From a virus, in UHGV virus genome UHGV-1559644: 11,321 nt of DNA, one strand, 5' to 3'. Made by a program: the position numbers and the translations under genes. Shown in pieces: positions 2,574-11,321 of this stretch (positions within the stretch are counted from its first letter, which is position 1; each line of letters begins with the position of its first letter). The notes beneath the pieces are model-generated. The model made no database searches. It was not told the origin of the DNA and was given only the letters and a program-made list of their open reading frames with translations.

Positions 2574-4058
2574 TTATTCATTAAGCCATGCCAGAGCTTC
2601 ATCAACCTGCGCTTCGTCTTCGACGCTAAGCACTTCATCCTGGGGAACATAATCCGCCAGCATAGCGAAACAATATGTATCCCAATGGTCTGGTGAGTGC
2701 AGGTTGAGTTTTTTCTTCATATCCTCCTTACTCATCACCTTCCATTGACCTGCGGAGTTAATCCCTACAGGGATTTTCGACGCTTCCTCAATAGTTTCAT
2801 TACCCTTATCCAGTCTCATACGACCTGATTTTACGGCCTCTGCGGCTTGAACGTTGGCATAAGCACGCTTATCAAAGTACAGGCTCTTATCTTCACGGCT
2901 ATGCATCTTTTTACCCCAGCGTATACGCTGTACGGTAATACCATAATACTCGTACATCAGATCCGCCGTTGCTTTACCCAGCCCATCACCGTCTATCGCT
3001 ATGGTGATATTTGGGAATCGCTCAGGATTACATTCTGCGAAAATTTTGGCGGCAAGCTGCGTTTCTGTAACGTCTGTGTATTCCAGCATTCGATAGTTGA
3101 TTACACGGCGTTTATTTCTCTGGCCGGACACCATCATGATATTGATAACGGACTTATCCCGTCCCGTACCACCAGCAACGTCCACACATGCAAGCCAGCC
3201 CCATCCTTTGGCAATCTTGACTTTCCGCCGCGTCGCACGTTCAACCTCATCACGTCCAAGAAGGAAGCCATCCTGTGATTTAGGGAATAGTCCGCGTACC
3301 TTAATCATGTACATAGGGTTATCACGCCCGCCGTACTCCGCCAGCTTCATTTTGATAAATGCTGGCGTTACCAGCGGTGATTCCTCACTGTTAAGCGTGA
3401 TCGCCGTATAAACGCCATCAGGGTTACCAGGACGCTTGGCCAGTTTATGGTGAGTATCGTAGAAATAGCCGCTTGGGCGTGTAGGCTGTGACAATAATAA
3501 GATGCGGTTATCCTGTCCGGTAAGAGCACCAGTGATGATACCGAAAGCTCTATCACTGACACCGGAGGCTTCATCGATAATATACAGAAGATGATCTGCG
3601 TGTTCACCGGCGAGAGCTTCTTCACTTCCCAGACGAAAGCCCTTCGGTACTACAGTCCATACACCTTTACCAGTAACCTCATAGAAAGCGGTTTCTGTCA
3701 GAACAAAATAATCAGCAAGCCATGGAAAACGGCTGGTGGCAGTAGCCCAGTTTATCTTGATGTACTTGAATATACCGGTCATTACCTGCTGAATTTTGTT
3801 CGCAACGATAATGGCGCGGGCACCGGGATACATGATTATGAACAACATGATCATGATAGAAGTCATGTCTGATTTCCCGGTACCGTGACCAGACGAAACA
3901 GATGTCTTGCTACCCTGTTCCTGCACAGACTCAATAATCAGATCCTGCTGCCAGGTAGGTGTTTTGCCGAACAAAACATCAGCGGCAGCAATCCAGTCAT
4001 AACGATATAGCGCCACCAGCTCGCGCCAACGTGGATCCGTTACGCAACTTCTGGCCAT
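2574..4058 (-). CDS. pacB: PacB, terminase (pacase) large subunit, 494 aa
   Basis: Walker A-like GHGTGKS and Walker B-like [11 protein letters not shown]. Start overlaps the pacA stop by 1 nt; synteny with P1 pacA-pacB. Confidence 0.88.
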
Positions 4059-7806: not shown

Positions 7807-8196
7807 TTAAATCACCGGACAATCATCAAACTCCCCACTTCGGGCATCATTGATGACATGAGTGATCACACCAAAAACAGCATTACTGCCCGTGCATCCA
7901 TCGTCATCTACTGGTAACGCCTCTTTCTTCCCGGTGCTTAAATCCTCCAGGTGCTGGCGCGGATACTTCCTGTATCTCTTTATGCGATATTCACCCTCCA
8001 TAGCGCACACAAGCAGAGAACCATCAACCGGAGTAAGCGAGGAATCAACCACCAGCAAAGCACCCTGCAATATTCCCTCACGGTGATGGCTATCAGCTGC
8101 CCGCATGAAGTAGGTTGCTGATGGATGCCTGATTAGTTGCTGATCAAGAGAAATTCGGCTTTCAACATAATCCGCCGCAGGAGAAGGGAAGCCCAT
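7807..8196 (-). CDS. humD: HumD, UmuD'-like translesion-synthesis accessory protein, 129 aa
   Basis: FPSPAADYVE...HPSATYF and C-terminal VFGVITHVI resemble UmuD. A LexA box lies 20 bp upstream; SD GAGGTGG. Position upstream of phd as in P1. Confidence 0.88.
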   Translation of the reverse strand: MGFPSPAADYVESRISLDQQLIRHPSATYFMRAADSHHREGILQGALLVVDSSLTPVDGSLLVCAMEGEYRIKRYRKYPRQHLEDLSTGKKEALPVDDDGCTGSNAVFGVITHVINDARSGEFDDCPVI

Positions 8197-8215
8197 AGCG
8201 TTTCCACCTCAATAA

Positions 8216-8235
8216 TACTGTTCATTTATACAGTA
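8216..8235. promoter_or_regulatory. LexA (SOS) box TACTGTTCATTTATACAGTA in the divergent humD / ORF 8371 intergenic region
   Basis: Perfect CTGT-N8-ACAG with AT-rich spacer, flanked by TA as in the consensus TACTGTATATATATACAGTA. Overlaps a -10-like TATAAA for humD. Confidence 0.85.
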
Positions 8236-8370
8236 TACATTAAAGAGACACCTTTGGTGCAAACGCGTTACGTACATCAACCACCGCTGATGATTTTGTG
8301 CGCTTTGCTACTATTCATCACCAACGGATCAGCGTAACCTCGTTGCCAATCAGTTAATAAGGAATTAGCT

Positions 8371-8955
8371 ATGCCTAATCGCATTCCTCTCGATCCTGTA
8401 TTGCCCAAAAATTTTGACTGCACTCCTAACGAGAAACGCTTTAAAGCTCAGCTGGACGCCTAGTGGGACCATCCATATGGGGTTACACAACCTGACGGGA
8501 AAATTGTAGTTTATTGTCTGAATGGTGGGGCGTGGGACCGTCCATCCGTGCTTTGTTTGGCAGATAACTATGATGAAGCCTGTGAACTTGCCGAAAGACA
8601 GCAGGCAAGCTGGGTAAAAACACGGTCTGAACCGACATTCATGTTTTCAAAAGAACCGCCATTTATACTGGCGAGGATGTCGCAGCGACCGGATCATCAA
8701 CAAGAAATTGTTGCTGAATTTTCCTCAAGGGATGAGATGAATCTCTTCTCATTAAAGCAGGAAGAAAGGGATCGCGTCGAAGTGTCTCCAACTCTCGACC
8801 ACAACCGGATGAACCTGGCCCAGCTCGCCTGGTACAGCAAAGAATTAGAGATGTCTATTGCCCGGCTTGAAAACGAAAAAGCCGCTATCCAAGTCCAGCA
8901 CGAAGTAGTTCTGAACCGGATTAGAGAAATGCAAAACGATAACAGGGGATTTTGA
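8371..8955 (+). pseudogene. hypothetical protein gene (193 sense codons) interrupted by one in-frame amber codon at 8461-8463; alternatively a 30-aa ORF plus a separate downstream ORF
   Basis: ATG at 8371 with SD AAGGA 8 nt upstream. The frame stays open from the TAG at 8461 to the stop at 8953. The downstream segment has no credible start/RBS (GTG 8548 and ATG 8641 lack an SD). C-terminal part is coiled-coil-like. Confidence 0.45.
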
Positions 8956-9312
8956 ATGGCTAAAATCGAGTACCATCGCGATCGCAGTAATTACCTGGAA
9001 ATATACGATCATGAATCTCTTAACGATATCAACGATGCGTTATATGAATACTGTGAAAAAACGAGCATCACAGATGCACCTGATGCATTTGTCGAGCTGC
9101 CGGTATATCTCCGCGACATCTATGCAATACGAACACCGCCCGTATCGGTGATTCACATTGGCTATGTCCGCCTGTCCATCGAAGAAGATGAAGATCGTTA
9201 TATCGTGCGCCACTATACATTGGACAGAAAAGAACTTCCTAATGAATGGAACATGAGTAATTTCTACAACGGTGAATATGGCTTAAAATCCGCTAATAAT
9301 TTACGGTCATAA
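8956..9312 (+). CDS. hypothetical protein, 118 aa, translationally coupled to the preceding ORF
   Basis: ATG at 8956 immediately follows the TGA of the upstream ORF; SD AGGGGA 8 nt upstream. No homolog recognised; AT-rich. Confidence 0.6.
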   Translation: MAKIEYHRDRSNYLEIYDHESLNDINDALYEYCEKTSITDAPDAFVELPVYLRDIYAIRTPPVSVIHIGYVRLSIEEDEDRYIVRHYTLDRKELPNEWNMSNFYNGEYGLKSANNLRS

Positions 9313-9865
9313 TCTATACAGGCATGTATAACAACAACGAGCCTATTAGCTGTCAACAACGTTATTTCCTCAAATAAGAAAAAGCAGAAAACAAATTGTT
9401 TAAGGTCACAAATTGTGGCCTTGATGGAGGAGGGAGGCTTATTGGCTATGGCTAAAAATCAAATTAGACACTTCATGTTGCTGTAGCTCATCAAGATCCG
9501 AGGCCACAAAACCTTTTCCGAAAAACTTCACAAGTAACTCACTAGCCGCATCATTGTCACCTATTACACGAAAGTCATACGGCAACGTCGCAAGTTGACG
9601 ATGTAATCCTGCTGAGAAAGTCGAATCTAACAGCGCCCAGAATTCCCACCGCAGGATAATACTCGCCTCTTAATACTGTATATATGTTGTTACGATATGT
9701 TTTTCTGTCTCTAAAAAAAGATGTTAATAGAATGCTAACCATTGAAGGGGATAAAAATATACAATTCCAACAAACGTTATTTTTAACAATTTTTTTCTTT
9801 GCGTTGACTTTCCCGGACACCTTGTCTGACCGAAGGTGCGCGAAAGCCACTTTTTCCTTCCTGAG

Positions 9866-9874
9866 TTATCCACA
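9866..9874 (+). promoter_or_regulatory. DnaA box TTATCCACA in the nrdA promoter region (second weaker box TTATGCAC at 9879-9886)
   Basis: Exact 9-mer DnaA-box consensus about 160 bp upstream of the nrdA ATG. Confidence 0.7.
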
Positions 9875-9903
9875 AAGTTATGCACTTGCAAGAGGGTCAT
9901 TTT

Positions 9904-9950
9904 CACACTATCTTGCAGTGAATCCCAAACATACCCCCTATATATAGTGT
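9904..9950 (+). promoter_or_regulatory. tandem NrdR boxes (CACACTATCTTGCAGTG and CCCTATATATAGTGT) of the nrdAB promoter
   Basis: Two imperfect 16-bp palindromes of the acaCwAtATaTwGtgt type spaced about 31 bp centre to centre, 80-120 bp upstream of nrdA. Confidence 0.7.
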
Positions 9951-10027
9951 TCTAAGCAGCTTCCCGTACTACAGGTAGTCTGCATGAAACTATTGCGGAA
10001 AGAATTCCAAAAACAGGTACGACATAC

Positions 10028-11270
10028 ATGAATCAGAATCTGCTGGTGACAAAGCGCGACGGTAGCACAGAGCGCATCAATCTCGACAAAATCCATCGCG
10101 TTCTGGATTGGGCGGCAGAAGGACTGCATAACGTTTCGATTTCCCAGGTCGAGCTGCGCTCCCACATTCAGTTTTATGACGGTATCAAGACCTCTGACAT
10201 CCACGAAACCATTATCAAGGCTGCCGCAGACCTGATCTCCCGTGATGCGCCGGATTATCAGTATCTCGCCGCGCGCCTGGCGATCTTCCACCTGCGTAAA
10301 AAAGCCTACGGCCAGTTTGAGCCGCCTGCGCTGTACGACCACGTGGTGAAAATGGTCGAGATGGGCAAATACGATAATCATCTGCTGGAAGACTACACGG
10401 AAGAAGAGTTCAAGCAGATGGACACCTTTATCGATCACGACCGTGATATGACCTTCTCTTATGCTGCCGTTAAGCAGCTGGAAGGCAAATATCTGGTACA
10501 GAACCGCGTGACCGGCGAAATCTATGAGAGCGCCCAGTTCCTTTATATTCTAGTTGCCGCGTGCTTGTTCTCGAACTACCCGCGTGAAACGCGCCTGCAA
10601 TATGTGAAGCGTTTTTACGACGCGGTTTCCACATTTAAAATTTCGCTGCCGACGCCAATCATGTCCGGCGTGCGTACCCCGACTCGTCAGTTCAGCTCCT
10701 GCGTACTGATCGAGTGCGGTGACAGCCTGGATTCCATCAACGCCACCTCCAGCGCGATTGTTAAATACGTTTCCCAGCGTGCCGGGATCGGCATCAACGC
10801 CGGGCGTATTCGTGCGCTGGGTAGCCCGATTCGCGGTGGTGAAGCGTTCCATACCGGCTGCATTCCGTTCTACAAACATTTCCAGACAGCGGTGAAATCC
10901 TGCTCTCAGGGCGGTGTGCGCGGCGGTGCGGCAACGCTGTTCTACCCGATGTGGCATCTGGAAGTGGAAAGCCTGCTGGTGTTGAAAAACAACCGTGGTG
11001 TGGAAGGCAACCGCGTGCGTCATATGGACTACGGGGTACAAATCAACAAACTGATGTATACCCGTCTGCTGAAAGGTGAAGATATCACCCTGTTCAGCCC
11101 GTCCGACGTACCGGGGCTGTACGACGCGTTCTTCGCCGATCAGGAAGAGTTTGAACGTCTGTATACCAAATATGAGAAAGACGACAGCATCCGCAAGCAG
11201 CGTGTGAAAGCCGTTGAGCTGTTCTCGCTGATGATGCAGGAACGTGCGTCTACCGGTCGTATCTATATTC
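10028..11270 (+). CDS. nrdA: ribonucleoside-diphosphate reductase 1 alpha subunit (class Ia RNR), N-terminal about 414 codons; 3' end truncated by the adapter
   Basis: Translation from the ATG at 10028 (MNQNLLVTKRDGSTERINLDKIHRVLDWAAEGLHNVSISQVELRSHIQFYDGIKTSDIHETIIKAAADLISRDAPDYQYLAARLAIFHLRKKAYGQFEPPALYDHVVKMVEMGKYDNHLLEDY...) matches E. coli-type NrdA including the ATP-cone. Absent from the ORF track because it has no stop in the window; the minus-strand track ORFs 9938..10438 and 10550..11311 are its shadows. Confidence 0.96.
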
Positions 11271-11321
11271 CTGTCTCTTATACACATCTCCGAGCCCACG
11301 AGACCGATCAATCTCGTATGC
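11271..11321 (+). other. Illumina Nextera P7-side adapter (CTGTCTCTTATACACATCTCCGAGCCCACGAGAC, then index bases and ATCTCGTATGC)
   Basis: Exact match to the Nextera read-2 transposase adapter, followed by index-like bases and the start of the P7 tail. Technical, non-biological. Confidence 0.95.

Follow-up and report, generated by a model that had tools for sequence, protein, structure and literature searches.

A P7/SJ46-type lxr locus with an amber codon in lxr and an intact upf93.6 in a P1-like phage-plasmid contig

The viral genome UHGV-1559644 was analysed as a stretch of 11,321 nucleotides (nt), hereafter the window, which carries genes of the P1/P7-type phage-plasmids: a cre fragment, coi, c1, pacB, pacA, lpa, pdcB, doc, phd and humD. 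We focus on two adjacent open reading frames (ORFs) of the plus strand situated beside humD. ORF1, which corresponds to lxr, covers positions 8371-8955 and comprises 194 codons including one in-frame TAG (8461-8463), with a TGA stop at 8953-8955. ORF2, a homologue of upf93.6, covers 8956-9312 and is intact (118 amino acids, aa; phrog_5797). The ATG of ORF2 abuts the TGA of ORF1 and both ORFs are in the same reading frame. Each one is preceded by a Shine-Dalgarno sequence: AAGGA (8359-8363) for ORF1 and AGGGGA (8944-8949) for ORF2. The divergent neighbour, on the minus strand, is humD (7807-8196), a 129-aa ORF encoding a UmuD'-like S24 peptidase and annotated as humD at the syntenic position of P1 and P7; the LexA box TACTGTTCATTTATACAGTA is found at 8216-8235. 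The original prediction had described two plus strand ORFs with ribosome-binding sites, divergent from humD, next to a canonical LexA box and in an AT-rich region of 42-45% GC. The coordinates, the Shine-Dalgarno sequences and the box were all verified, and the GC content is 47.0% for ORF1, 41.5% for ORF2 and 44.9% overall.

By megablast, the segment 8200-9850 displays full-length matches at 99.2-99.5% identity to Salmonella phage SJ46, phage P7, the infant-faeces "Punavirus P1" record (MH422554) and many plasmids; dozens of phage-plasmids of E. coli and Salmonella are at least 99% identical to it. In PLSDB, 314 records match this segment, 89 of them covering at least 80% of the query. Both genes are annotated in these relatives, as upf94.2 and upf93.6 in P7 and as "LexA regulated function" and "Upf93.6" in MH422554, while ORF1 is named lxr in P1. 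ORF1 matches phrog_6164 (E 1.5e-133, residues 1-194 of 194) and ORF2 matches phrog_5797 (E 3.7e-76, residues 1-118 of 118), two families that are both catalogued as "unknown function" in PHROGs. Once its TAG is repaired, the ORF1 protein has 98% identity to P0001 (194 aa), which is of the P7 type, and 90-91% to P1-type proteins (190 aa). The ORF2 protein differs by two aa from Upf93.6 of P7 and by one from that of MH422554. The order humD, LexA box, lxr is the same in the window, P1, P7 and MH422554.

Similarity to P1 ends at 8938, within the last codons of lxr, and resumes at 9767 with 77% identity; P7 and MH422554 are collinear with the window across 8939-9766 at about 99%. This P7/SJ46-type cassette (8939-9766) holds the last lxr codons, upf93.6 and an AT-rich spacer, and replaces the segment of P1 that contains hot: after lxr, P1 carries hot on the opposite strand, at the place where P7-type elements have upf93.6. 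ORF2 gives no HolE match in Pfam, and the P1 hot segment does not align to the window. Because of the megablast matches, the annotations of P7, MH422554 and P1, and the confirmation by PHROGs, we identify ORF1 as P1 Lxr and ORF2 as Upf93.6, a P7-type gene occupying the place of hot. A published survey counts the hot-lxr-humD stretch among the eight variable regions of P1-like phage-plasmids (PMC9603915), in keeping with the accessory-cargo location that had been predicted. The claim of novelty did not survive: neither product had been matched to a known family, those of P1 included, and both proved to be GenBank-annotated proteins of P1 or P7 with PHROG families; the pair put forward as the strongest candidate for an undescribed system is near-identical in at least 89 PLSDB plasmids. 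The proposal was to fall if both ORFs proved near-identical to annotated P1 genes of known function. Near-identical annotated genes do exist; a known function does not come with them. The locus is already known: it is a catalogued accessory gene pair of P1-like phage-plasmids with no function assigned, and not a new system.

Both ORFs are genuine genes and not chance ORFs: the homologues of ORF1 form 477 clusters, and those of ORF2 extend down to 32% identity, with 49 positions invariant among the close ones. That they might be ordinary chromosomal genes of E. coli located upstream of nrdA is suggested by the window itself, which runs into ypaB-nrdA at 99.5% identity from 9773. But the similarity to the chromosome starts only there, the gene upstream of ypaB in the chromosome is yfaL, and 8200-9850 is present at full length in only 80 of 5,426 E. 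coli genomes, all plasmid-sized records among the matches listed. A chromosomal origin of the pair is thus refuted.

Codon 31 of lxr is TGG, coding for tryptophan, in P1, P7 and MH422554, and TAG in the window (8461-8463, plus strand). Trp31 lies within the invariant motif WWDHP and is invariant in alignments of 41 and of 20 family members. The exact 48-mer containing the TAG is found in 7 of the 89 complete plasmids of the same lxr type, and no full-length coding sequence is annotated there. Plasmid pEC21Z048-103K, which has the same TAG allele, shows only two other base differences from the lxr of the window; in this plasmid the Prokaryotic Genome Annotation Pipeline (PGAP) calls only a 135-aa remnant that starts at a GTG. 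The same remnant appears in the ORF list of the window at 8548-8955 (plus strand), and in NZ_CP101271.1, a TAG-allele plasmid, it is annotated as "hypothetical protein" WP_001354543.1. The internal TAG, which had been taken as a codon to be read through, is better described as the knockout of an invariant tryptophan, by an allele common to 7 of 89 plasmids. As judged from its sequence, lxr is here a pseudogene, a member of its family by descent but without an intact reading frame.

One could nevertheless argue that lxr is functional here, the TAG having arisen as an error of sequencing or assembly or being read through. The contig, a raw assembly, has adapter remnants and a probably chimeric end, and it carries three private changes at conserved residues of both genes; yet the identical TAG 48-mer is present in seven independently finished plasmids, with pEC21Z048-103K only two bases off, and TAG is an ordinary stop in E. 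coli. We regard this alternative as very improbable. Since the allele is identical in seven complete plasmids, the amber mutation circulates in a natural sub-lineage and is not a sequencing error. The private changes relative to the TAG-allele plasmid (positions 8441, 8680 and 8986) are all C>T or G>A; each is non-synonymous and hits a residue that is conserved elsewhere. They correspond to S24F and P104S in Lxr and to G11S in Upf93.6. These three transitions could reflect either relaxed selection after the inactivation of lxr or read or deamination errors. Degraded forms of lxr, with frameshifts, internal deletions or truncations, make up sizeable clusters (P0021, P0028, P0035, P0038 and P0041), and in a genome-wide CRISPR interference screen lxr of P1 was scored non-essential (PMC10695390). 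Because of the amber allele in seven plasmids and of these other degraded clusters, lxr is a dispensable gene that decays repeatedly. From the present stretch only Upf93.6 and possibly the 135-aa Lxr remnant can be made.

The intact Lxr protein is composed of a conserved N-terminal domain of about 125 aa (Lxr-N) and a C-terminal coiled-coil helix. Full-length Lxr (190-198 aa) comes almost only from enterobacterial records, and all the examples whose context was examined belong to P1-like elements. The first ~125 residues also exist as stand-alone proteins of 130-140 aa in gamma-, beta- and alpha-proteobacteria. These proteins are 50-70% identical to Lxr over residues 1-125 and share 30 invariant positions with it, including the motifs WWDHP and CLNGGxWDR. 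A profile search with Lxr-N retrieved the 477 clusters mentioned above, none of which carries a Pfam domain. By tblastn, the domain was found in 897 plasmids of PLSDB, 564 of them conjugative and 472 from Klebsiella. On present sequence comparisons, Lxr belongs to a plasmid-restricted and strongly conserved protein family, of which it is a member extended by a coiled coil.

The neighbours of Lxr-N differ from one type of plasmid to another. In the 47-kb plasmids of Pseudomonas it is accompanied by a 66-aa gene and by a resolvase gene that overlaps it; in SSU5-like phage-plasmids of Klebsiella, by a HEPN/Toprim gene and a gp32-exonuclease-RecA operon; in large plasmids of Salmonella, by umuDC/Ter; in those of Bradyrhizobium, by repABC and trb operons; and in environmental plasmids, by arrays of small genes. 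Two of these contexts deserve a description of their own. In Pseudomonas plasmids of 47-63 kb (L004-L007, 7790-9040) the operon consists of the 66-aa gene, Lxr-N and a serine resolvase whose start overlaps the Lxr-N stop. A mer transposon lies directly upstream of this operon in L006, which would fit a res-site-hunting insertion beside a multimer-resolution module. In the SSU5-like elements (L008-L011, 8001-9763) the gene for a candidate defence nuclease (HEPN_Toprim_N/HEPN_RiboL-PSP) comes after Lxr-N, and the region is divergent from the gp32-exonuclease-RecA operon.

The Upf93.6 family is small: a word search gave 17 clusters, and an exhaustive hidden Markov model search, with the profile run against 1.8 billion representatives, added about 20 small relatives. 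Relatives are present in 186 PLSDB plasmids and, outside P1-like elements, they follow unrelated genes. In an IncN conjugative plasmid, for instance, the relative is located between ssb and a TrfB-like gene on one side and ccgAII on the other, which we take to be leading-region genes of IncN plasmids. The G11S substitution is private to the window, Gly11 being otherwise invariant. Giant BspA-type leucine-rich-repeat proteins also came up as possible relatives; their weak matches, in multiple stretches, reflect a resemblance of short repeat motifs and were judged non-homologous.

In three lineages of P1-like elements lxr and upf93.6 are adjacent, with gaps of 0-15 nt. Two of these lineages are diverged from the window (65-70% identity for Lxr and 53-57% for Upf93.6) and differ in their humD and phd-doc neighbours; in both, a 190-aa Lxr is encoded directly upstream of the Upf93.6 homologue. 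The same-frame layout with a single stop between the two genes is also found in these two diverged lineages, L032 and L033, and in cluster P0059 (58 member sequences) a TGA to TGG change creates a natural in-frame fusion of Lxr to Upf93.6. The conserved adjacency, this fusion, the direct contact of the lxr stop with the ORF2 start and the proximity of the phd-doc addiction module would all suit a single functional two-component module, be it a toxin-antitoxin, an abortive-infection or an anti-defence pair. The distribution of the two genes speaks against it: P1 itself has lxr without upf93.6, none of the contexts examined for the ~900 plasmids with the Lxr N-domain shows a Upf93.6-like neighbour (five non-P1 contexts), and the relatives of Upf93.6 elsewhere lie behind unrelated genes. 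In addition, PADLOC and Pfam give no toxin-antitoxin or defence match, and the amber allele of lxr accompanies an intact upf93.6 in seven complete plasmids; because this lxr-null allele is viable beside upf93.6, Lxr is unlikely to act as an essential antitoxin of Upf93.6. Separate distribution and a viable null allele led us to drop the toxin-antitoxin or defence-pair idea, and a two-component module in general seems unlikely. As Lxr-N is widespread without Upf93.6, Upf93.6 has relatives without Lxr, and P1 has lxr only, the two ORFs form an operon within P1-like elements that is built from otherwise independent genes, and not an obligate two-component system. Of the two-gene system initially proposed, the compact same-strand pair kept in P1-like elements stands, and the obligate association does not, each gene being widespread alone.

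The LexA box (8216-8235) is the only CTG-N10-CAG match in 8100-9950, and the records of P1 and P7 list a LexA binding site at the same place. It precedes both start codons, the ATG of humD by 20 nt and that of lxr by 136 nt. The intergenic region was scanned for promoters with standard hexamers and with relaxed ones. The best sigma70-like candidate, obtained by the relaxed scan, points towards humD on the minus strand (8232-8262; -35 TTGCAC at 8262-8257 and -10 TATACT at 8237-8232) and overlaps the box. In the direction of lxr no sigma70-like promoter was found, either in 8190-8380 with the relaxed scan or in the intergenic region with the standard one. By this geometry the box is positioned as an operator for humD, and SOS control of humD appears well founded. 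McLenigan et al. in 1999 are said to have shown experimentally that HumD is a UmuD' homologue. SOS control of lxr is only an inference from proximity, and no expression data on lxr were found in the searchable literature.

A broader role of the box was considered, in which LexA would directly control the pair as an SOS-induced operon, acting with HumD in DNA-damage tolerance or in replisome modulation. This is compatible with lxr and upf93.6 being accessory genes of the P7/SJ46 type. The canonical box lies in an intergenic region shared by humD and lxr, and the P1 record annotates it as regulating both genes. The neighbour of lxr in P1, hot, is a homologue of the theta subunit, and some Lxr-N homologues are close to umuDC or to recombination operons. 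A diverged P1-like element that lacks humD (L032) adds a further case: its intergenic region (3273-3418) contains a perfect LexA box, embedded in a perfect palindrome of 34 bp (AAACACATACTGTATACATATACAGTATGTGTTT), and separates lxr from an unrelated 84-aa leftward gene taking the place of humD. This suggests that the SOS operator is kept at the divergent promoter region even where humD has been swapped out. Even so, the box of L032 is again ~20 nt from the leftward gene, just as that of the window is close to the humD start, and overlaps promoter candidates directed towards humD, no sigma70-like counterpart towards lxr having been found in 8190-8380. Moreover, the region upstream of lxr in L033 gave no LexA box, and neither did that of any non-P1 Lxr-N homologue examined, with gamma- and alpha-proteobacterial motifs. 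For these reasons we consider direct LexA control of the pair less likely than not.

Searches for a function were negative for both proteins. The Pfam, NCBIfam and PADLOC scans gave nothing above threshold, only weak coiled-coil or DUF (domain of unknown function) matches; in PADLOC-DB neither protein matched any family at E up to 1; and profile searches against the PDB returned chance matches only. Among the latter we rejected the resemblance of the WWDYG motif of archaeal oligosaccharyltransferase to WWDHPYG of Lxr (E 0.067). An AlphaFold2 model was built for the P7-type protein P0001, which is 98% identical to the repaired ORF1, from a 41-sequence alignment. Its mean pLDDT (predicted local distance difference test) is 86.5. 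The model consists of a globular alpha-beta3-alpha-beta3-alpha domain and a long helix; after an extended N-terminus it shows a helix (25-31), three strands (36-39, 45-50 and 58-64), a helix (67-85), three further strands (89-91, 98-102 and 112-117), a helix (120-134) and the long helix (149-191). Foldseek comparison of this model with the PDB and BFVD gave nothing at E <=0.001. Both families are acidic, with isoelectric points of 4.5-5.6 (4.8-5.4 for the Lxr family and 4.8 for Upf93.6 of the window). NCBI names the Lxr homologues "DNA-binding protein". Lxr has no helix-turn-helix or other DNA-binding domain in Pfam and no structural match to DNA-binding folds, and this label fits poorly because the families are uniformly acidic. 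We found no functional study of lxr, upf94.2 or upf93.6 in the searchable literature.

Taken together, these results are best explained by a P7/SJ46-type lxr locus in which lxr has been killed by an amber codon and upf93.6 is intact, both being non-essential accessory genes; we give this explanation a probability of about 85%. As to what the intact proteins might do, we tentatively propose that Lxr and Upf93.6 act independently of each other, both as acidic accessory proteins that are directed at the host and belong to the establishment or leading-region type. Arrays of leading-region genes are enriched in anti-defence and anti-SOS genes (PMC11541004). Co-transcribed in P1-like elements, Lxr and Upf93.6 would each probably bind a conserved host protein of DNA metabolism or defence, and not DNA, and the C-terminal coiled coil of the P1-type Lxr, as modelled, would probably make a dimer or an oligomer. 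In its most explicit form, which is speculative, Lxr-N would represent a new class of establishment factors of plasmids and phage-plasmids, targeting a conserved host protein such as one of SOS, recombination or defence, and Upf93.6 a second, unrelated, acidic anti-defence protein of the leading-region type, recruited into the operon.

Several points weigh against this interpretation. The functional part is built on context and composition, without a significant match in family libraries, the PDB or fold databases. The long helix dominated the fold searches made with the full-length Lxr model, so that a match of the N-domain could have been missed, and the model of Upf93.6 (pLDDT 39.6, from a 7-sequence alignment) is unusable for a fold search. 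The label "DNA-binding protein" could be neither traced nor supported, but it was not disproved either. Finally, the adjacency of lxr and upf93.6 in three lineages, the P0059 fusion and the LexA box of L032 make a functional link between the two proteins possible.

The window in itself matters little: it holds an ordinary, known locus, near-identical to annotated genes of P1 and P7, the first of which is dead. The main by-product of the analysis is the Lxr family, which is uncharacterised and is carried by hundreds of clinically relevant conjugative plasmids of Klebsiella, E. coli and Citrobacter under a database label, "DNA-binding protein", that has no visible support. Likewise, the name "LexA regulated function" rests on nearness to an operator positioned for humD. 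Intact alleles of both genes are reasonable inclusions in anti-defence and anti-SOS screens of the accessory genes of plasmids or phage-plasmids.

We also analysed the region downstream of upf93.6, where the window passes from plasmid to chromosome. Similarity to P7-type plasmids extends to 9904, and the match to the E. coli chromosome (ypaB-nrdA) covers 9773-11270 at 99.5%. In a three-way alignment the window is of plasmid type up to ~9832 and of chromosome type from 9897, with 9833-9896 identical in both. The segment common to P1-like plasmids and to the ypaB-nrdA promoter region of E. coli (9773-9904, ~130 bp) includes a DnaA box, TTATCCACA (9866-9874); a resemblance to an E. coli region in which two DnaA boxes are predicted is already mentioned in the P1 record. 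The ORF pair had been placed at the edge of the P1-type segment, a placement that has to be revised, for plasmid sequence continues to 9896-9904 and the junction falls inside the repeat shared with the chromosome. The Nextera transposase adapter AGATGTGTATAAGAGACAG and its reverse complement are found at 31-49 and 11271-11289, where they truncate cre on the left and nrdA on the right. Because adapters are embedded near both its ends, the contig is an untrimmed raw assembly. The join of plasmid to chromosome is most probably an assembly chimera through the repeat; a real recombinant cointegrate is the less likely alternative.

The AT-rich spacer just downstream of upf93.6 is interrupted in several relatives. 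P7 has an IS903 inserted there (L001 4871-5927, at ~9575 of the window), and in other plasmids the same spacer contains ISVsa5 or an element of the IS3 family. Insertions thus appear to recur at this spacer in P1-like plasmids. The spacer also contains a LexA-like half site, TACTGTATATATGTTGTTAC (9674-9693), which reads CTG-N10-GTT and is not canonical; it lies inside a minus-strand ORF that corresponds to upf91.7 of P7.

Compared with known systems, the pair resembles type II toxin-antitoxin modules such as phd-doc in that two small plasmid genes with abutting stop and start lie beside an addiction module. It differs from them because the genes occur independently, the upstream one is lost naturally without loss of the downstream one, and neither protein resembles known toxin or antitoxin families in the Pfam and PADLOC scans. 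With regard to leading-region or establishment genes (ArdA, ArdB/KlcA, PsiB), family scans and fold searches gave no sequence or fold similarity. Likeness to them is one of context and composition only: small, acidic, non-essential and plasmid- or phage-borne proteins, with a Upf93.6 relative between ssb and ccgAII in an IncN plasmid. The stand-alone Lxr-N proteins (NCBI "DNA-binding protein", no Pfam family) are without the C-terminal coiled coil, the LexA box and the Upf93.6 neighbour, and are found in a resolvase operon, beside repABC, in SSU5-like phage-plasmids and in large IncHI/IncF plasmids. The closest relatives are those of P1 and P7. Lxr of P1 (AAQ14072.1, AF234172) and Upf94.2 of P7 (AAQ07574.1, AF503408), both in PHROG 6164, are the same gene as ORF1, at the same position and with the same LexA box; the copy of the window differs by the Trp31 to amber change and by the private S24F and P104S, and its C-terminal codons follow the P7 type (…MQNDNRGF) and not the P1 type (…VQNG). 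P1 proper lacks upf93.6 and has hot there, on the opposite strand. Upf93.6 of P7 (AAQ07573.1, PHROG 5797) is the same gene as ORF2, placed directly after lxr and 118 aa long, from which the window's version is distinguished by two substitutions, one of them the private G11S at an otherwise invariant glycine.

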